DNA of 64,000 bases, taken from Thermoplasmata archaeon. Lineage in GTDB: Archaea; Thermoplasmatota; Thermoplasmata; Lutacidiplasmatales; UBA184. Of this stretch, positions 13,281 through 64,000 are shown one piece after another; positions within the stretch are counted from its first letter, which is position 1, and every line of letters begins with the position of its first letter. Below the pieces are notes generated by a model that saw nothing but the letters and a program-made list of their open reading frames with translations, made no database searches and was not told the DNA's origin. The stretch covers positions 15,408-79,407 of the forward strand of contig JAKASE010000009.1 of assembly GCA_021819135.1 (NCBI GenBank). Direction: 5' to 3'. The translations under genes were made by a program, and so were the position numbers.

Positions 13281-15248
13281 TTACCGAATGGGCACGGGGT
13301 GGGACCCGGCAGCTGCCGTAGACGGGACCGGGTGCCCGGGGTCGACCAAACCGGCCCGCCTCAGAATCTCGGCGAACCTTGGGTCCTTCCGGACCGGGTC
13401 GAGCGGCGGGTCCAGCCGGAACGGAGTGAACCAGAGATTCCGCTGGTCGATCGCCTGGTCCAGCAGACGGAAACAACCCTCCACGTCGCCGACATGGGCA
13501 CGCAACCAAGCGAAGAGAAACGCCACGGTCCGCACGGAAGTCGCTTCCTCTTCCCGGAGGAGCTCCTTTGCCCTTTCGATTTGGCCGAGGCCGGCGTACG
13601 CGACGATACGCAGGGCCCACGCCCCCCCCGGCCGGATGGCGTCCCATCGGTCCGCCGACTCCAGCGCGCGTTGAAAGTCGGAACAATACGCATGGTACCA
13701 ACCGAGCGCCTTGTAGTACGACTCTCCGGCGTGGTCGACCTGACGGAGGCGCCTAATGATGTTCTCGGCCTCCTCCCGCCGCCCCAGATAGTTCAGGTAG
13801 TAGACGTGGGCCACCAGGATGGGTACCGACTGGGGGTCCGACTCCTCGGCCACGGAGAGTTCTCGCAGGGCCTCCTCGACCCGGACCTCGTCCATCAGCA
13901 GCACGGCGTAGTTCTGCCGGGCCCACGAGTAGCTCGGGCTGAGGGCGATCGCCTGCCGGAACTCCCTCTCTGCCTCGGCCCACTGCCAGTCGTCGTAGAG
14001 GATGAGGGCGAGCGATGCATGCGCCTCGGCGAGATCCGGATCGAGCTCTAGCGCGTGGGTCACGAACGGTCGTGCCCTGGCGTCCCACTCCGCTCGGGTA
14101 CTGGGGTCGAAGAGCCCGACGAGGTGAATGGTCTCGGCGAGACCGCAGTACGCCGCGGCGTTCTGATCATCGAGTGAAACGGCAAGCTCAAACTGCTTTC
14201 TCGCGGCCTCCAGCGACTCCCGTTGGACGGACGCAGCCATCAGGTGGCGCCCCCTCAGGTACGCCAGGTAGGACTCGGGACGGATGCCCGGCCGTTCCCC
14301 CATGCGGGCCTCTTCCTCGCCCTTCAGCCGGACCTTCAACGCGTCGGCGATCTCCTTGGAGACATCCGTCTGGACCGCAAAGATGTGGGCGACCTTCCGG
14401 TCGAACGTGTTCGACCAGACGTGGGCCTGGGACCCGACATCAATGAGTTGCACCGCGATCCGGAGCTGGTCGCCCGACCTTCGGACGCTTCCCTCGAGGA
14501 TCGATGTGACACCAAGTTCCGCCCCGACCTGATCGATCGGCTTGGGCGCTCCCTTGTACTGCACGACCGAGGTACGTGCGGTCACCTGGAGCCCCTGCAA
14601 CCGCGAGAGCATCGTGATCAACTCCTCGGTGAGGCCATCGGCGATGTACTCGTCCTTGGGATCCGGACTGATATTGGCGAACGGAAGTACCGCGAGCCGC
14701 GGCAGAACTGCGGGTCGGGGCGCGGACGGGACCGGGGCCCACGGTAGCACGATCCGATAGATCTCCAACGGCTCCCCGAGCCCCTTGAGGTTCTTCGCGC
14801 CGATCTCCTCGAACCGATACGGCACCTTCGTGCGCACCTGGTCGTAGACCTGCGCCGATAGGCAGACCCCCCCGGGATCCGCACACGACTCCAACCGAGA
14901 GGCGATGTTGACGGCATCTCCGAGGATGTCGGCCCCCTTCCGCTGGACATCGCCCAGATGGATGCCGACCCGCATCGGAAGCCAAAGCGCCCTCTCCCGT
15001 TCGTCCCGCTCTGCCGCGTGACGTTGAAGGTCGACCCCGCACTCGACCGCGTCCAGGGCGTCCGGGAACTCGAGCAAGAGTCCGTCGCCGATCGACTTCA
15101 CCTTCCGGCCATGATGGGTCGCGAGGACCATTCGAACGAGCCGGTCCTGCTCTTGGAGCAGCCGGAAGGCTCCCCGCTCATCTCTCTGGCTGAGCTGCGT
15201 GAACCCCTCGAGGTCGGTGAACATTATGGCCGAGAGACGGCGCGCCAT
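13281..15248 (-). CDS. class III adenylate/guanylate cyclase with TolB-N-like segment and C-terminal TPR repeats
   Basis: N-terminal CHD cyclase domain (MFTDLEGFTQL...GDGLLLEFPDA...GIHLGDV). Followed by LAVLPFANISPDPKDEYIADGLTEELITMLS and multiple TPR-like helical repeats (A/L/Y-rich, ~34 aa periodicity) to the C-terminus. Confidence 0.8.
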   Translation of the reverse strand: MARRLSAIMFTDLEGFTQLSQRDERGAFRLLQEQDRLVRMVLATHHGRKVKSIGDGLLLEFPDALDAVECGVDLQRHAAERDERERALWLPMRVGIHLGDVQRKGADILGDAVNIASRLESCADPGGVCLSAQVYDQVRTKVPYRFEEIGAKNLKGLGEPLEIYRIVLPWAPVPSAPRPAVLPRLAVLPFANISPDPKDEYIADGLTEELITMLSRLQGLQVTARTSVVQYKGAPKPIDQVGAELGVTSILEGSVRRSGDQLRIAVQLIDVGSQAHVWSNTFDRKVAHIFAVQTDVSKEIADALKVRLKGEEEARMGERPGIRPESYLAYLRGRHLMAASVQRESLEAARKQFELAVSLDDQNAAAYCGLAETIHLVGLFDPSTRAEWDARARPFVTHALELDPDLAEAHASLALILYDDWQWAEAEREFRQAIALSPSYSWARQNYAVLLMDEVRVEEALRELSVAEESDPQSVPILVAHVYYLNYLGRREEAENIIRRLRQVDHAGESYYKALGWYHAYCSDFQRALESADRWDAIRPGGAWALRIVAYAGLGQIERAKELLREEEATSVRTVAFLFAWLRAHVGDVEGCFRLLDQAIDQRNLWFTPFRLDPPLDPVRKDPRFAEILRRAGLVDPGHPVPSTAAAGSHPVPIR

Positions 15249-58675: not shown

Positions 58676-59605
58676 ATGACGCGACCGTCCGTACGCGAGC
58701 TGGGAGAGGGCCGACAGCTGCTGGATCTCGACTTTAGGGACGCGGAGGGGCTGATCGCCGCCTATCTAGTGCCCGCCGCGGACGGCTGGATCCTTATCGA
58801 GACCGGGCCCACGACCTGTCGGGACGCCCTGCTCGCCGCGATCGATCGCGCGGGCGTCGGGCGGGAGGAGATCCGGAAGGTCTTCGTCACGCACATCCAT
58901 CTCGACCACGCGGGGGGGATGGGGGCGCTCGCCGAGGCGCTTCCCCGGGCGACCTTCTATGCGCACGAGCTCGGTGTCCCGCATCTGGTCGATCCCACCC
59001 GTCTGATCTCGAGCGCGCGGCGCGCCTGGGGCCCGGCCTCCGATACGCTTTGGGGGACGATCGTGCCGGTGCCCGCGGCCCGGGTGGTCGCGCTCCGGGG
59101 AGGCGAGCGCTTTCCCCTGAAGGACGGCGAGCTCTCGGTCCTCGCCACCCCCGGGCACGCCCGCCACCATCTCGCCTTCTTCGACTCCCGGATCCGCGGG
59201 ATCTTCACGGGGGACGGAGCCGGCGTGCGCCTTCAGTCCGGCCGTCGCCTCCGCCCGGCGGTGCCGCCTCCGGACCTTGACCTCGACCAGCTCTACGCGA
59301 GCGTCGACGCGATGCGCCGGACCGACCCCCGTCTCGTCCTCTTCAGCCACTTCGGGCCGAGCCCGGAGGGGGTTGCGGACCTCGAACGGTACCGCGGGGT
59401 CGTCGAGTCCTGGCGGGAGGTCGCGCTCGCCGCGGCCCGAGAGCGGCCGGAGGTCGCGTACATCACCGAACGTCTCCGCGCGTTCGACGAGTCGTCGCAC
59501 GAGGGGATCTCAGCGGATGACCGGGAGTCCCTCATCTCGGGGTACGAGCTCGCCGCGGGGGGCTTCCTCCGGTACTTCGAGACCCACGGACTGATCGGCC
59601 GGTGA
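58676..59605 (+). CDS. MBL-fold metallo-hydrolase
   Basis: VTHIHLDHAGG (HxHxDH) and downstream His/Asp ligands (TPGHARHH). 309 aa from an internal ATG of the longer ORF-track entry. Confidence 0.75.
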   Translation: MTRPSVRELGEGRQLLDLDFRDAEGLIAAYLVPAADGWILIETGPTTCRDALLAAIDRAGVGREEIRKVFVTHIHLDHAGGMGALAEALPRATFYAHELGVPHLVDPTRLISSARRAWGPASDTLWGTIVPVPAARVVALRGGERFPLKDGELSVLATPGHARHHLAFFDSRIRGIFTGDGAGVRLQSGRRLRPAVPPPDLDLDQLYASVDAMRRTDPRLVLFSHFGPSPEGVADLERYRGVVESWREVALAAARERPEVAYITERLRAFDESSHEGISADDRESLISGYELAAGGFLRYFETHGLIGR

Positions 59606-60867
59606 GCGACCCCGCCCCGCTCGACCGCACGCGTCGGCGGGAGGCGGCGACCACGCTCCTGCTCGCCCGCATCGTCTACGCGTTCAACTGGTACAACATC
59701 GGAGGGCTCTCGGTCCCGCTCGCCGCCACGATCGGGGTGACCACCTTCGAGTTCGGGGTCGTGCTCGGGGCGTTCCTGATCGGCGCCGGGCTCTTCCAGG
59801 TCCCCGCCGGCTTGGCCGCCCTCCGGTGGGGGAACCGCGCGACCTCCCTGTTCGCGCTCGTCCTCATGGGCGGCTTCTCCCTCGCCTCGGCATTCTCCCC
59901 GAACTGGATCGTCCTCGCCGCCTTCCGCTTCGGTGCGGGCGCGGGAGCCGCGTTCTTCTTCGCGCCGGCGCTCGGGCTCATCGCGTCGTACTACCCCTCG
60001 GGAAGTCGGGGTCCGATCATCGGGCTCTACAACTCCGGGTTCAGCATCGGCTCCGGCATCGGCCTCTTCGGCGGCGCCCTGATCGGCGCCAGCTACGGCT
60101 GGCCCCTTGCCCTCGCGGTCGGAGGGATCGGGCTCCTCGTGATGGCGGCCATCGGACCGTTCACCCTGCCGCGAGGGGCAGGACGGGTAGCGCTCCCGTC
60201 GTTCCGCCGTCTCTGGAACGACGCGGCGGCGCCGATCTTCCGGTCCCGATCGATCTGGGCCCTCGCCCTCGCGGTATCGGGGCTGTGGGCGGCGTACTAC
60301 GTGGCGGCGCAGTACTTCATCGCCTTCGCAAGCGCGGTCCATCCGGGTTGGTCGGTCGCCGTGGCAGCGGCCGTACCGGTGGTCATGATCATCCTCGAGG
60401 TCCCGGGCGGCCCCATCGGGGGGTGGATCGGCGAGCGGGCCGTCTCGATGCGGCTCGTCCTCCTCGTATGGGGGGTGGTGTCGGCCGTGGGGATCTTCGC
60501 GATCCCGCTTCTCGGACTGCCGGGTCTCCTGGCCCTTTTCGGGTTCCTCGGTTTCGCGGACGGGGTCGTCTTCGCGGTCCTCTACCTGATCCCGTCGTAC
60601 CTTCCAGAGTCGCGAGGGGAGACGCTCGCGCTCGGCCTCGCGTTCGTGAACTCGATCCAGATCTTCCTTGGGAGTCTGCTCGCGATCGTCTTCGGCTACA
60701 TCGCGGGGATGTGGGGCTACGAGGCCGCCTGGTGGTTCGCGGGCGTCATCGCACTCGCCCCGCTCCCCCTCCTCGCGTGGGTGAGCGGTCGGGGCGGCGA
60801 CGCGACGTACGTCCGCGCCCGGGCGCGGGGACCCCGGGGCGTGCGGGCTCCGAGTCGACCAATGTGA
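59602..60867 (+). CDS. MFS transporter
   Basis: 12 predicted hydrophobic helices. MFS motif A-like GAGLFQVPAGLAALRWGNR between TM2-3 and repeated in the second half. Confidence 0.75.
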   Translation: MSDPAPLDRTRRREAATTLLLARIVYAFNWYNIGGLSVPLAATIGVTTFEFGVVLGAFLIGAGLFQVPAGLAALRWGNRATSLFALVLMGGFSLASAFSPNWIVLAAFRFGAGAGAAFFFAPALGLIASYYPSGSRGPIIGLYNSGFSIGSGIGLFGGALIGASYGWPLALAVGGIGLLVMAAIGPFTLPRGAGRVALPSFRRLWNDAAAPIFRSRSIWALALAVSGLWAAYYVAAQYFIAFASAVHPGWSVAVAAAVPVVMIILEVPGGPIGGWIGERAVSMRLVLLVWGVVSAVGIFAIPLLGLPGLLALFGFLGFADGVVFAVLYLIPSYLPESRGETLALGLAFVNSIQIFLGSLLAIVFGYIAGMWGYEAAWWFAGVIALAPLPLLAWVSGRGGDATYVRARARGPRGVRAPSRPM

Positions 60868-62257
60868 CCAGGTTCGTGGGTCGCCCTTCGACCGGATACC
60901 CCGCCGTCAGGACGATCGGGCCCGACTCCCCGATCCGGCTATGGACGATCAGCTCGGCGGCCCGCGTCCGTAGCTCCACGAGGTCCCGGTGCACCGGGGC
61001 CGGGAGCGAGATCACGCCGCCCACCAGCGCGAGCCTCCTCCGGGTCGCTCCCGAGTTGGAGAGGGCGACGACCGGGCACGCCGGCCGGAGCCGGGCCACC
61101 AGCCGGGCGGTCCGACCCGAATGCGTGGGGGTGACGATCGCCCGGGCCCGCACGCCCTCGGCCAGTCGGACCGCCGCGCCCGCCACCGACCGTTCGGTCT
61201 CGGTCGACGGGCGGATGTCGAGATCACGGACCAGGCGAGGATCGAAGGCGCCCTCGGTGGCCCGGGCGATCCGGTCGAGCCAGCGGACCGCGTCGGCCGG
61301 GTAGGAGCCTACCGCGCTCTCCTCGCTCAGCATCACCGCGTCCGCCCCGTCGAGGACCGCGTTCGCGACGTCGGTCGCCTCGGCCCGGGTCGGTCGTGGT
61401 GCGTGCATCATCGACAGGAGCATCTGGGTCGCGACGATCACGAACCTCCCGGAGAGGTTCGCTTTCCGGACGAGGTTCTTCTGTTCGAGCGCGAGGCGCT
61501 CGAGGGGGACCTCGATCCCGAGATCGCCCCGCGCCACCATGATCCCGTCTGCCGCGTCGAGGATCGCGTCGATCGACCGGAGCGCCTCCGCGCGCTCGAT
61601 CTTCGCGATCAACCCCACCTCGGCCCCGTGGGGCTGGCGCTTGAGCCAGGAACGGACCTCGTCGAGATCGCGGCGGTCCCGCACGAACGACAACGCGAGG
61701 TAGTCGATCCCTTCCGCGAGCCCGAGCTCGGCGTCGTGCCGGTCCTTCTCCCCGAACACGGAGGTGCGGAGGTGGGCGCGCGGAAGGAACAGGCCCGCAT
61801 GGGAGGTCACGGTCCCGCCGTTCAGCACACGGGCCTCGATTGCCCCCGGCCGCGCCCGGACCACGGCCAGCGACACGCTCCCGTCGCCCAGGAGGACGGG
61901 GTCGCCCGGCTTGGCGCTCCGCTCGAACGACGGGATCTGGACGCCGACCCGACGGTCGTCCCCGGGCGTTGGGTCCTCATCGAGCACCCAGAGCCGTCCG
62001 GACTGAAGACGCACCGTTCCTCCGGCGAGCTCCCCGATACGGATCTTCGGTCCCTGGACGTCCCCGACGATCGCGATCTCGTGATCCGTGCGACCGACCG
62101 CTGCTCGGATGCGACGGATCAGGGTGCGGTGCTCATCGTCGGTACCGTGCGAGAAGTTCACACGAAAGGCATCCGCACCGCCATCGATCAGCTCCCGGAG
62201 GCGATCGACCGAGTCGGTCGCCGGACCGACGGTCGCGAGGATCTTGGTTCGTCGCAC
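60746..62257 (-). CDS. pyk: pyruvate kinase
   Basis: VRRTKILATVGPAT N-terminus (GTG start), FRVNFSHG, MVARGDLGIEVP, IVATQMLLSMM. The ORF-track start at 62362 was rejected because it overlaps tRNA-Gln. The C-terminal 30 aa (Pro/Arg/Gly-rich) overlap the MFS gene and may be read-through. Confidence 0.8.
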   Translation of the reverse strand: MRRTKILATVGPATDSVDRLRELIDGGADAFRVNFSHGTDDEHRTLIRRIRAAVGRTDHEIAIVGDVQGPKIRIGELAGGTVRLQSGRLWVLDEDPTPGDDRRVGVQIPSFERSAKPGDPVLLGDGSVSLAVVRARPGAIEARVLNGGTVTSHAGLFLPRAHLRTSVFGEKDRHDAELGLAEGIDYLALSFVRDRRDLDEVRSWLKRQPHGAEVGLIAKIERAEALRSIDAILDAADGIMVARGDLGIEVPLERLALEQKNLVRKANLSGRFVIVATQMLLSMMHAPRPTRAEATDVANAVLDGADAVMLSEESAVGSYPADAVRWLDRIARATEGAFDPRLVRDLDIRPSTETERSVAGAAVRLAEGVRARAIVTPTHSGRTARLVARLRPACPVVALSNSGATRRRLALVGGVISLPAPVHRDLVELRTRAAELIVHSRIGESGPIVLTAGYPVEGRPTNLVTLVDSEPARPGVPAPGRGRTSRRRPDRSPTRGGGAGRVR

Positions 62258-62336
62258 GCCCGCCGTAGGCCCCCCGGCCTTATAGTCCGGTGACCCGGGG
62301 GGAGCTATTTGTAATCCGAACCCTCGTCCCGCCGAT

Positions 62337-62409
62337 AGCCCCGTGGTGTAGAGGCCAAGCATGCCGGCCTTTGGAGCCGGCGACAGCGGTTCGAATCCGC
62401 TCGGGGCTA
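62337..62409 (+). tRNA. tRNA-Gln (anticodon UUG)
   Basis: Hand-folded cloverleaf: acceptor AGCCCCG/CGGGGCT; D-arm GTGT-AGAGGCCAA-GCAT; anticodon stem CCGGC/GCCGG with loop CTTTGGA (U33, anticodon TTG, G37); 4-nt variable loop; T-arm AGCGG-TTCGAAT-CCGCT; discriminator A. No encoded CCA, as typical in archaea. Confidence 0.8.
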
Positions 62410-62443
62410 CAATTAAAATAATGTCGAGACGCTAGGTCTTACG

Positions 62444-62665
62444 ATGGCGACCGACCGGATGACGTCCATCTCCGTCCATGCTTCCACGCTACGAATGCTC
62501 CAGCCGTTCAAGAAGGGAGACATGACCTGGGACGATGTGCTGATCGACTTCATTGAGGAGCACGTTCCGAAGGAGTTCGTCCGGGCAATGATTCGAGAAG
62601 CCGAGAAGGGTCCCGGCATCCCTTTCGACCAAGTGTACGAGGAGCACGTTCGTCGGAGGCGCTAA
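62444..62665 (+). CDS. putative antitoxin (small protein upstream of RelE/ParE toxin)
   Basis: 73 aa, lower-GC codon usage than the rest of the window. Stop is 3 nt before the toxin gene start. No family recognised by eye. Confidence 0.45.
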   Translation: MATDRMTSISVHASTLRMLQPFKKGDMTWDDVLIDFIEEHVPKEFVRAMIREAEKGPGIPFDQVYEEHVRRRR

Positions 62666-62668
62666 CGC

Positions 62669-62953
62669 TTGCCTATCGTGGAGATGAGCCACGAGGCGAG
62701 GCGCCAGTTCCTATTGTTGCCCCCCGAGATTGCGGACCAGTTCAAAGAGCTCGCCGACCACCTGAAGGAGAACCCCCACCGCCTTCCGCCGTGGTGCGAG
62801 GTGAAGGCCATCGGACGAGAGGGTGCGAAGGAGGTCTTCCGTGCCCGAGTCGGGGAGTACCGTGCGACCTACGTGTTCGACGGTCACACGGTCCGCTTCA
62901 CTCGCTTCCGATTGCGGAGAGATATCGGCTACTCTGTCCTACCAAAGTCGTAG
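62669..62953 (+). CDS. RelE/ParE-family type II toxin
   Basis: 94 aa. ...FRARVGEYRATYVFDGHTVRFTRFRLRRDIGY matches the RelE/ParE core (R..G.YR.iY.....v.i.ri.hR...Y). Confidence 0.65.
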   Translation: MPIVEMSHEARRQFLLLPPEIADQFKELADHLKENPHRLPPWCEVKAIGREGAKEVFRARVGEYRATYVFDGHTVRFTRFRLRRDIGYSVLPKS

Positions 62954-63045
62954 GTCAGTTCTCTCTGCGCCCGCGACGAAAGTCCCCCTCACTTCACCGC
63001 TCTTCCACCGACGGATGCCCCCGGGAGTCTGCGCCAAAAGTGCTC

Positions 63046-64000
63046 CTAATGAGCCCACGGTAGGACCACACGGTAAACCTCCACGGGGCCCTGCAGTCCC
63101 TTCAGGATCGTCGGCGGAAGTCTCTCGAGAGGGTTGGTCAACTTGTTCCGGACCTCCTCCCGGACGGCCCCCGAGACACAGATCCCTCCGGCTTCGGCGA
63201 CCGGCTCGATCCGGGCGGCGACATTCACGGCGTCGCCTACAATGTCGCTGCCCTGCTGGACGACGTCTCCCAGATGAACCCCAATTCGAATCTGTATCGG
63301 GGTCACTCGAGGGGCCTTATTCCGCTCGAAAATTCGCCGCTGAACCTCGATGGCGCACCGAGTCGCTTCTAGTGCGCTCCCGAACTCGATCAGGAGGCCG
63401 TCGCCGGTCGACTTGATCTCACGTCCGTGAAAATCTAGTACGAGTGGCCGAATCAGATCCTGCTGCTGGCGAAGCATCTCGAGCGCGTGAGCTTCGTCGC
63501 GGTGTGTTGACTCGGTGAAGCCAACCGTGTCCGTGAACATGATCGCGGCCAGTCGTCTGCCCTCGGGCGAGGCTGTAGTGGCACAAATGGCGACCTCGCC
63601 GTTGGCCTTCAGCTGCAGCCGCTGCCATCGGGAGTCGAAGGTCTTTCCCCTTAACGCGCGAATTCGGAGGAACCGTTCAACGCGACCGCCGACCTCTTCA
63701 CTCTTGAAATCGATGATTCCGTCGCAGAGGGCCTCGAACTTCGTGTAGAACGACTCGGACGCGATGCCCCTTGGGAATGCCAGGAAGTGCGGACACTCTC
63801 GGGCCCGGATGGCGGGAAGGATCGCCGTCCGCCACGCGTCGATACAGGTCTTCTCGTCATTGTACTGGAGAAAGATGCCGGTATTGTCGTCAAGGTGAAG
63901 CCAGCCTTTCTCCTCTGGCGGATAGCCGGCCTTGGTCCGCTCGATCCATCGCGCGGCTCCCTGAACGATGTCCAGCGGATTTTCATGAGTTTCTTCCCAG
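63046..64000 (-). CDS. KaiC-like (RecA-superfamily) domain fused to class III adenylate/guanylate cyclase domain; 5'-partial (continues beyond window end)
   Basis: C-terminal 164 aa is a CHD cyclase domain (MFTDTVGFTE...KSTGDGLLIEFGSALEATRCAIEVQR...RIGVHLGDVVQQGSDIVGDAVNVAARIE). The reading frame stays open upstream to position 64000. The upstream part (…DAWRTAILPAIRARECPHFLAFPRGIASESFYTKFEALCDGIIDFKSEEVGGRVERFLRIRALRGKTFDS…) matches the C-terminal half of a KaiC/RadB-type domain (…DGvI.L…R.L.I.KmRG…). Confidence 0.7.
   Translation of the reverse strand, partial: WEETHENPLDIVQGAARWIERTKAGYPPEEKGWLHLDDNTGIFLQYNDEKTCIDAWRTAILPAIRARECPHFLAFPRGIASESFYTKFEALCDGIIDFKSEEVGGRVERFLRIRALRGKTFDSRWQRLQLKANGEVAICATTASPEGRRLAAIMFTDTVGFTESTHRDEAHALEMLRQQQDLIRPLVLDFHGREIKSTGDGLLIEFGSALEATRCAIEVQRRIFERNKAPRVTPIQIRIGVHLGDVVQQGSDIVGDAVNVAARIEPVAEAGGICVSGAVREEVRNKLTNPLERLPPTILKGLQGPVEVYRVVLPWAH

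Follow-up and report, generated by a model that had tools for sequence, protein, structure and literature searches.

Fusion gene and its product

The stretch of DNA analyzed here (the window; 64,000 nucleotides (nt) of contig JAKASE010000009.1 from the Thermoplasmata archaeon assembly GCA_021819135.1) ends inside a minus-strand gene that encodes a protein, P0001, in which a class III nucleotidyl cyclase catalytic domain follows an N-terminal domain (hereafter, N-domain) of the KaiC fold with the ATP-binding motifs lost (Table 1). P0001 is probably a soluble 422-amino-acid (aa) archaeal class III adenylate cyclase regulated by this catalytically dead KaiC-fold N-domain. A sequence-only reading of the window had described the gene as a direct fusion of a KaiC-type ATPase or autokinase to a cyclase.

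The minus-strand frame contains no stop from 63999 to 63049 and closes at TAG (63046–63048); as that reading had stated, it is open to the window edge, and its translation gives the peptide strings quoted there. In the locus L001, which is the window's own contig (0 mismatches over 10,955 overlapping nt), the start codon, an ATG, lies 314 nt beyond the window; an in-frame stop is located 90 nt farther upstream, and the frame is intact, without a frameshift. The stop or frameshift just beyond the window that would have refuted the reading, by splitting off the N-terminal part, is therefore absent: L001 contains one intact 422-aa gene, so this is a single-gene fusion. In database searches, the full-length P0001 is 100% identical to the window fragment, the identical gene is found in two further assemblies (one of these is NCBI GCA_027377435.1), and the same two-domain layout recurs in more than 70 homologues of 400–450 aa, which argues that P0001 is the product of a real gene rather than a chance open reading frame (ORF). 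The search for KaiC–cyclase architectures that had been proposed along with the fusion returns not only these homologues but also fusions in the reverse order and fusions with an intact Walker A motif, as described below.

The length of the interdomain linker is almost constant across the family. In the predicted structure of P0001, the mean predicted local distance difference test score (pLDDT) is 90.4, and residues 247–250, within the linker, form the sole segment with pLDDT below 50.

Table 1. Features of the fusion gene and its surroundings. Positions are those of the window; the roles of individual residues are presumed.
Feature	Position	Strand	Remarks
Cyclase-fusion gene, 3' part	63046..64000	-	955 nt of the 1269-nt gene: codons 106–422 and stop
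Class III nucleotidyl cyclase catalytic domain	63049..63558	-	Residues 253–422
Interdomain linker	63559..63576	-	Residues 247–252
P-loop-less KaiC-fold domain, C-terminal 141 residues	63577..63999	-	Residues 106–246
Degenerate P-loop of P0001			Residues 28–36; encoded outside the window
Metal-binding Asp residues	63529-63531 (D262)	-	D262 and D305
Adenine-specifying Lys/Asp pair			K301 (in IKSTGDG) and D357 (in SDIVGD)
Transition-state residues			N364 and R368
Walker-B-equivalent H140-L-D142-D-N	63883-63897	-	KaiC 'vvIDS' aligned to 'WLHIDDN'
R222	63649-63651	-	In C-terminal beta-hairpin; aligned with Arg of the KaiC 'MRG' motif
tRNA-Gln (UUG)	62337..62410	+	Islet border
RelE/ParE-like toxin ORF, 94 aa	62669..62953	+	Same islet; no functional tie to the cyclase
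73-aa ORF, presumed antitoxin by position alone	62444..62665	+	4 nt upstream of the toxin ORF

The cyclase domain

The cyclase assignment is borne out both by sequence and by the predicted fold. The 317-residue fragment encoded in the window matches the Pfam family Guanylate_cyc over fragment residues 151–309 (E = 2.4e-14, 53.8 bits, with a cut-off of 21.9) and the NCBIfam LipJ-type cyclase (E = 3e-22), and the full-length P0001 scores 52.8 bits with PF00211 (same cut-off of 21.9) over residues 256–414. In a phmmer search, the cyclase domain matches 3mr7 with E = 4.5e-32, and Ma1120 and Rv1900c with E-values of 1e-12 to 1e-18. The catalytic positions were located by alignment to 3mr7 and Ma1120 and by the GDxVNxAxR motif. 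All six of these residues (D262, K301, D305, D357, N364 and R368), including the specificity pair K301/D357, are present in P0001 and invariant among 32 full-length homologues with 40–59% identity, and the cyclase call of the sequence-only reading accordingly stands. The roles listed in Table 1 are those that we take these residues to have from established knowledge of class III cyclases. Class III cyclases work solely as head-to-tail dimers, which create the active sites; P0001 is predicted to be a homodimeric, catalytically competent adenylate cyclase, and the K301/D357 pair indicates a purine substrate, namely ATP.

Judging by sequence, the closest counterparts of the cyclase domain of P0001 are small cyclase domains that form homodimers, namely those of Silicibacter pomeroyi 3mr7, Mycobacterium avium Ma1120 and M. 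tuberculosis Rv1900c/LipJ, with which it has the cyclase fold and the catalytic residues in common. Rv1900c and 3mr7, like P0001, bear an unrelated N-terminal regulatory domain; in P0001, however, this partner appears to be a KaiC-fold pseudo-ATPase, not an alpha/beta-hydrolase, and the host is an archaeon. The cyclase domain of P0001 is 62–70% identical to those of Thermoplasmata cyclase–TPR proteins that lack the N-domain but merely 44–52% identical to those of most other fused proteins, whereas its N-domain is 62–65% identical across phyla. This contrast suggests domain shuffling or unequal evolutionary rates.

The window encompasses a second class III cyclase gene (13281–15248, minus strand), which encodes a 655-aa protein with an N-terminal cyclase domain (48% identical to that of P0001), then a TolB-N-like segment and TPR-like repeats, and no KaiC-like domain; the host genome, thus, holds several cyclases.

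A KaiC-like domain without a P-loop

The KaiC-like N-domain is barely visible to standard family profiles. The window fragment yields a weak Pfam KaiC match (E = 0.069) that is confined to the end of the profile (positions 178–222 of 231) and an NCBIfam KaiC_arch_4 match with E = 0.026; the full-length P0001 scores 22.8 bits with Pfam KaiC (PF06745), below the cut-off of 26.6, and its homologues score 25.7–33.4 bits in partial matches only. A profile of the N-domain (alignment A2) compared with the PDB retrieves KaiC-family chains only (8zn5 with E = 7.5e-9, 2dr3, 2zts and 2w0m), the matched proteins including PH0284, PH0186 and SSO2452, and Foldseek connects P0001 to KaiC with E of about 1e-12. 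The sequence profile and the predicted fold jointly place the N-domain in the KaiC clade of the RecA fold, as had been read from the sequence.

Several elements of KaiC are retained. P0001 keeps the C-terminal signature of the KaiC family, FEALCDGIID ... RIRALRG (RIRxLRG). In hidden Markov model (HMM) alignments, the invariant D142 is aligned to the Asp of the KaiC 'vvIDS' motif, within a segment that scores below significance. R222 is aligned with the Arg of the KaiC 'MRG' motif, which we take to be the arginine finger of KaiC, and hence the interface-forming elements appear to be kept in the N-domain.

The motifs involved in ATP binding and hydrolysis are a different matter. The true KaiC domains used as the alignment reference were those of P0114 and P0120, along with the PDB HMM alignments. 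The loop between strand 1 and helix 1 reads F-D-A-D-S-L-W-Y-E in P0001, with the family consensus E-F-D-P-D-S-L-W-Y-E; that is, in place of the Walker A P-loop there is an acidic loop, D-x-D-S-L-W-Y-E, which is conserved and shorter than a P-loop. In the hhalign alignment, GPPGIGKE of P0114 falls on FDPDSLWYE, such that the position of the Walker A Lys is occupied by Tyr35 and that of [ST] by Glu36, and in the HMM alignment the catalytic 'FEE' of KaiC corresponds to 'FQH', in which F57 and H59 are invariant and Q58 nearly so. A GxxxxGK[ST] motif is found inside the domain in none of the 38 genome loci, none of the 18 distant representatives inspected and none of the 136 near-complete family domains. 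Because both Walker A and the catalytic Glu pair are lost, we read the N-domain as a KaiC-fold pseudo-ATPase, which would be unable to bind or hydrolyze ATP in the Walker manner and, given the loss of these motifs, more likely serves in sensing or assembly than as a switch driven by ATP.

The same evidence bears on the mechanism put forward in the sequence-only reading, namely, that the N-domain is a working KaiC-type ATPase or autokinase, with an ATP-driven, phosphorylation-gated oligomeric cycle that gates cyclic nucleotide synthesis. The KaiC fold with its C-terminal signature, the probable Walker-B Asp (D142) and the 'MRG'-aligned R222 would fit such an enzyme, and the same archaea encode cyclase fusions with Walker A intact (GPPKVGKS in P0120 and GAPKTGKS in P0115). 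This proposal is nevertheless contradicted by the missing Walker A motif in P0001 and in all 136 family domains, by the replacement of the Walker Lys with Tyr and of [ST] with Glu, by the change of the catalytic Glu-Glu to Gln-His, and by the shorter loop, in which the two Asp residues would repel phosphate; we consider it very unlikely. P0001 should not be called an ATP-driven, clock-like switch, tempting as this over-reading is.

At least 85% conservation over the broad family is observed for S32, W34, D88, D143, E154, E194, D198, R217, R219, D227 and W230, and the cyclase-fused subfamily has three invariant His residues (55, 59 and 140) beside E36, D88 and D142. As far as can be judged from the alignments, purifying selection holds the remodelled pocket, with no decay.

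Distribution and architectures of the family

An exhaustive profile search of 1.84 billion representatives detected 546 proteins with E <= 1e-3, 83 of these with E <= 1e-30, and a scan of the GTDB species representatives yielded 38 loci, all in archaeal metagenome-assembled genomes (Thermoplasmata, Nitrososphaerales/Thaumarchaeota and Bathyarchaeia), with multiple paralogues in several genomes. By sequence, this is a small, distinct family of P-loop-less KaiC-like domains.

An unbiased search of representatives gave 64 complete domains, of which the majority (41) are stand-alone; 13 carry a C-terminal extension of 60–250 aa, two (P0123 and P0155) are followed by a C-terminal AAA+ ATPase, four by the cyclase, and three by the cyclase and then a TolB-N-like segment and TPR; in one case the order is reversed, with the cyclase preceding the N-domain. 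The reverse order is found also in P0068, P0073 and P0074. The commonest fused architecture is the form of about 420 aa that ends directly after the cyclase. The N-domain, then, is an autonomous, mobile module that occurs alone or with several different partner domains.

In eight aligned sequences of the class with extensions of 60–250 aa, there is a conserved extension of about 110 aa (SGWRSL...GERGRGG...RVAY); its carriers are L006, L012, L013, L028 and L032, and P0118, P0124, P0127 and P0134. It has no significant sequence match in Pfam or the PDB. In the AlphaFold2 model, three helices are followed by a two-strand hairpin, with a winged-helix-like look, and one might guess at DNA binding. 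The AAA+ fusions are about 560 aa long and have both Walker motifs, A and B, intact. At three loci (L014, L020 and L034), a stand-alone member lies near a gene for a 1151-aa protein that combines a degenerate KaiC-like N-domain with a STAND-type NTPase.

The same type of cyclase is also fused to KaiC domains in which Walker A is intact or nearly so, in P0114, P0115 and P0120. These proteins come from the same archaeal groups and their cyclase parts are 52–56% identical to that of P0001, but their KaiC domain keeps GxxxxGK[S/E], exceeds the Pfam cut-off by a wide margin (P0114 reaches 77 bits) and represents a branch different from the P-loop-less family. KaiC-superfamily domains and cyclases have thus become paired time and again, and this speaks for a functional link between the two.

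Automatic pipelines have already tagged homologues of P0001 with both Pfam domains, and one entry of the Joint Genome Institute (JGI) names both; no dedicated Pfam or NCBIfam model for the N-domain was found. Searches of the literature on the fusion, on archaeal class III cyclases and on inactivated KaiC-like domains yielded no description of the fusion, in agreement with the sequence-only reading, in which the architecture was not recognized. Both KaiC domains that have lost activity and class III cyclases under regulation are already known; what seems new is that soil archaea have a separate KaiC family without a P-loop, and that it is fused to adenylate cyclases there.

Related proteins

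The single-domain archaeal KaiC-like proteins PH0284, SSO2452 and ArlH/FlaH, and cyanobacterial KaiC, have the C-terminal signature and probably the Walker-B Asp in common with P0001. All of them have Walker A and bind ATP, and KaiC and ArlH autophosphorylate; in the N-domain of P0001, by contrast, neither Walker A nor the catalytic Glu pair is present.

Similar in concept are the inactivated KaiC-like domains (iKaiC) noted in response regulators and HalOD1 proteins of archaea (Galperin et al. 2018, PMC5847659, citing Makarova et al. 2017). P0001 is like these in containing a KaiC-superfamily domain with degenerate ATPase motifs that serves as a module in an archaeal signalling protein. The iKaiC examples are, however, mainly haloarchaeal and joined to REC, PAS or HalOD1, whereas the hosts of the P0001 family are Thermoplasmata, Nitrososphaerales and Bathyarchaeia of soil and sediment, and the family has its own conserved D-x-D-S-x-W motif and is partnered with the cyclase, AAA+ or the extension of about 110 aa.

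A bacterial counterpart is BcsE, the enterobacterial regulator of cellulose secretion, in which a RecA/KaiC-like N-domain without Walker A mediates oligomerization (PMC7439463). BcsE resembles P0001 in the loss of Walker A from this fold, but there is no detectable sequence relationship between the two N-domains, and the GGDEF domain of BcsE is degenerate and only binds cyclic di-GMP, whereas the cyclase of P0001 looks competent.

Possible roles of the N-domain

Under the interpretation favored here, the N-domain would be an input or assembly module rather than an ATPase, and could act in one of three ways: by self-association through the retained RecA-type interface, by binding a small ligand, a metal or a partner protein where the nucleotide pocket has been remodelled, or by docking onto active KaiC-like ATPases. 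Through the short linker of fixed length, the N-domain would govern the head-to-tail pairing of two cyclase domains, and the dimerization state of the cyclase would set the output of cyclic AMP (cAMP). Precedents for such a role are iKaiC (PMC5847659), BcsE (PMC7439463) and the docking of ArlH onto ArlI (cited in PMC10983859).

Several observations weigh against this interpretation. The predicted template modelling score (pTM) of the P0001 model is only 0.61, and the relative orientation of the two domains is accordingly uncertain. It is motif homology that places the conserved polar residues in one pocket, and a P-loop-less RecA fold may bind nucleotides in a non-canonical way. P0001 itself departs from the family signature within the motif that replaces the P-loop, with L27 in place of the Glu found at this position in 90% of the broad family and A30 in place of the consensus Pro. 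Finally, an insertion sequence ends 83 nt upstream of the ATG, which makes the expression of the cyclase uncertain.

A broader proposal takes the whole family as an unnamed class of archaeal input modules, in which the pocket (Asp, Ser, Trp and Glu, with three His added in the cyclase-fused proteins) senses a small molecule or metal, or docks KaiC-like ATPases, and passes its state on to cAMP synthesis, the extension of about 110 aa or AAA+. This generalization is tentative and, in our estimate, more doubtful than not by a good measure.

Somewhat more doubtful still is the possibility that the pseudo-KaiC is an adaptor that enters mixed rings with active KaiC-like ATPases encoded elsewhere, or docks onto them, such that the state of an archaeal 'KaiC hub' is read out as cAMP or via the extension of about 110 aa. 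The elements of the KaiC oligomer interface (E194, D198, R217, R219, D227 and W230) are the best conserved in the broad family, most of the members are stand-alone proteins of about 250 aa, as would be expected of subunits or adaptors, and the three loci with the 1151-aa KaiC-like/STAND-type protein nearby fit in as well. There are analogies, too: Elp4/5/6 and the Rad51 paralogues, which are structural neighbours, form mixed RecA-like rings, and the KaiC-like ArlH acts by docking onto the hexameric ATPase ArlI (as cited in PMC10983859). However, no partner gene is conserved beside the family in 36 loci.

cAMP signalling in archaea is poorly understood, and there is a proposal that the chief signalling hubs of archaea are KaiC-like proteins (Makarova et al. 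2017, cited in both PMC5847659 and PMC10983859). The recurrent fusion of KaiC-fold domains with adenylate cyclases, in both orders, amounts to Rosetta-stone-type evidence that links the two systems in soil Thermoplasmata, Nitrososphaerales and Bathyarchaeia; if the broader proposal above holds, the fusion would physically and directly tie cyclic-nucleotide signalling to the proposed archaeal KaiC hub. The family also offers a clean test case for what becomes of the RecA/KaiC fold after P-loop loss (scaffold, ligand sensor or adaptor), with cAMP as an easily measured output.

Genomic context

The fusion gene lies in an islet of low guanine-plus-cytosine (GC) content, beside a toxin–antitoxin pair, as had been noticed from the sequence. 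The GC fraction falls from 0.70–0.75 to 0.60–0.66 exactly at tRNA-Gln. The last 18 nt of this tRNA gene together with the 2 nt that follow (62392–62411) recur exactly 4090 nt away (L001 3748–3767), past the cyclase gene and beyond the window end, and a third copy, with 85% identity, is located a further 3.5 kb on (L001 250–269). The three copies of the tRNA-end repeat delimit two tandem low-GC islets, the first with the RelE/ParE-like pair, the cyclase gene and an insertion sequence, and the second with VapBC and a CLC channel. Gene calls over the available 7.8 kb up to the contig end include no integrase. The 94-aa ORF matches Pfam ParE_toxin just below the cut-off (E = 4.9e-4) and a PHROG RelE-like toxin (E = 2.5e-5); the 73-aa ORF has no family match. 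The insertion sequence (about 1.9 kb, L001 3923–5851, outside the window) is bounded by perfect inverted repeats of 18 nt (CTGGAGTTTACAAGATAG) and flanked by a candidate TGCTG target duplication. Between the repeats lies a 562-aa DDE_Tnp_1-like ORF, for which, as for the cyclase, the PHROGs search gave no match.

The family at large does not share this setting. In the comparison of neighbourhoods across 36 family loci, no gene family is common to more than four, and an operon-based assignment of function is therefore rejected. A tRNA gene is present within the fetched flanks of five of the 36 other family loci and abuts the family gene in just one of these. With no shared neighbours, and tRNA adjacency not being a family trait, the context of P0001 is particular to this copy: the location in the tRNA-Gln islet is the history of one copy and not a feature of the family.

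These observations divide the suggestion of the sequence-only reading that the gene might be part of a mobile signalling or defence module. Its mobile part is supported by the tRNA-end repeats and the drop in GC. Its defence part would make P0001 the signal-producing enzyme of a mobile anti-virus system of the Pycsar or CBASS kind on the tRNA-Gln islet; the low-GC islet with its repeats, toxin–antitoxin pairs and insertion sequence would fit this, and P0001 matches the PADLOC profile of the Pycsar cyclase PycC (33.1 bits, E = 7.6e-9), its sole match to a defence system. This match is weaker than those to ordinary adenylate cyclases (115 bits for the 3mr7 type) and probably reflects generic cyclase-domain homology. 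Given, further, that the invariant Lys/Asp pair indicates a purine substrate, that the adjacent genes are the toxin–antitoxin pair and the insertion sequence rather than an effector, that neither a conserved neighbourhood nor a regular association with tRNA genes exists across the 36 loci, and that several paralogues coexist in single genomes, the anti-virus function is highly improbable.

The islet could also be taken to mean that this particular gene was acquired horizontally and is now a passenger in decay, with poor expression or no function, stranded in an integration hot spot. The GC fraction of the gene is 0.60, compared with the host level of 0.72, the insertion sequence sits directly upstream, the L27 and A30 substitutions depart from the family signature, and the closest relatives, L004 and L005, are longer and continue past the cyclase, L005 into a TolB-N-like segment and TPR-like repeats. 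On the other side of the balance, the ORF is intact and retains every catalytic residue, the sequence is identical in three assemblies, and the form that ends directly after the cyclase is the commonest one among fused proteins elsewhere; decay is improbable.

Three further observations concern the surroundings of the gene. A 156-nt stretch over the 3' part of the toxin ORF (62833–62988) has a direct copy with 72% identity at L001 2792–2947, in the neighbouring islet, which may be the remnant of a second toxin–antitoxin module. The 538-aa pyruvate kinase ORF (60746–62362, minus strand) runs into the tRNA-Gln gene; translation probably begins instead at the GTG at 62257 (V-RRTKILATVGP), for a protein of about 503 aa. 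A gene of the metallo-beta-lactamase fold (58676–59605, plus strand) shows a weak match to the Anti-Pycsar protein Apyc1 alongside Lactamase_B, probably by generic fold homology.

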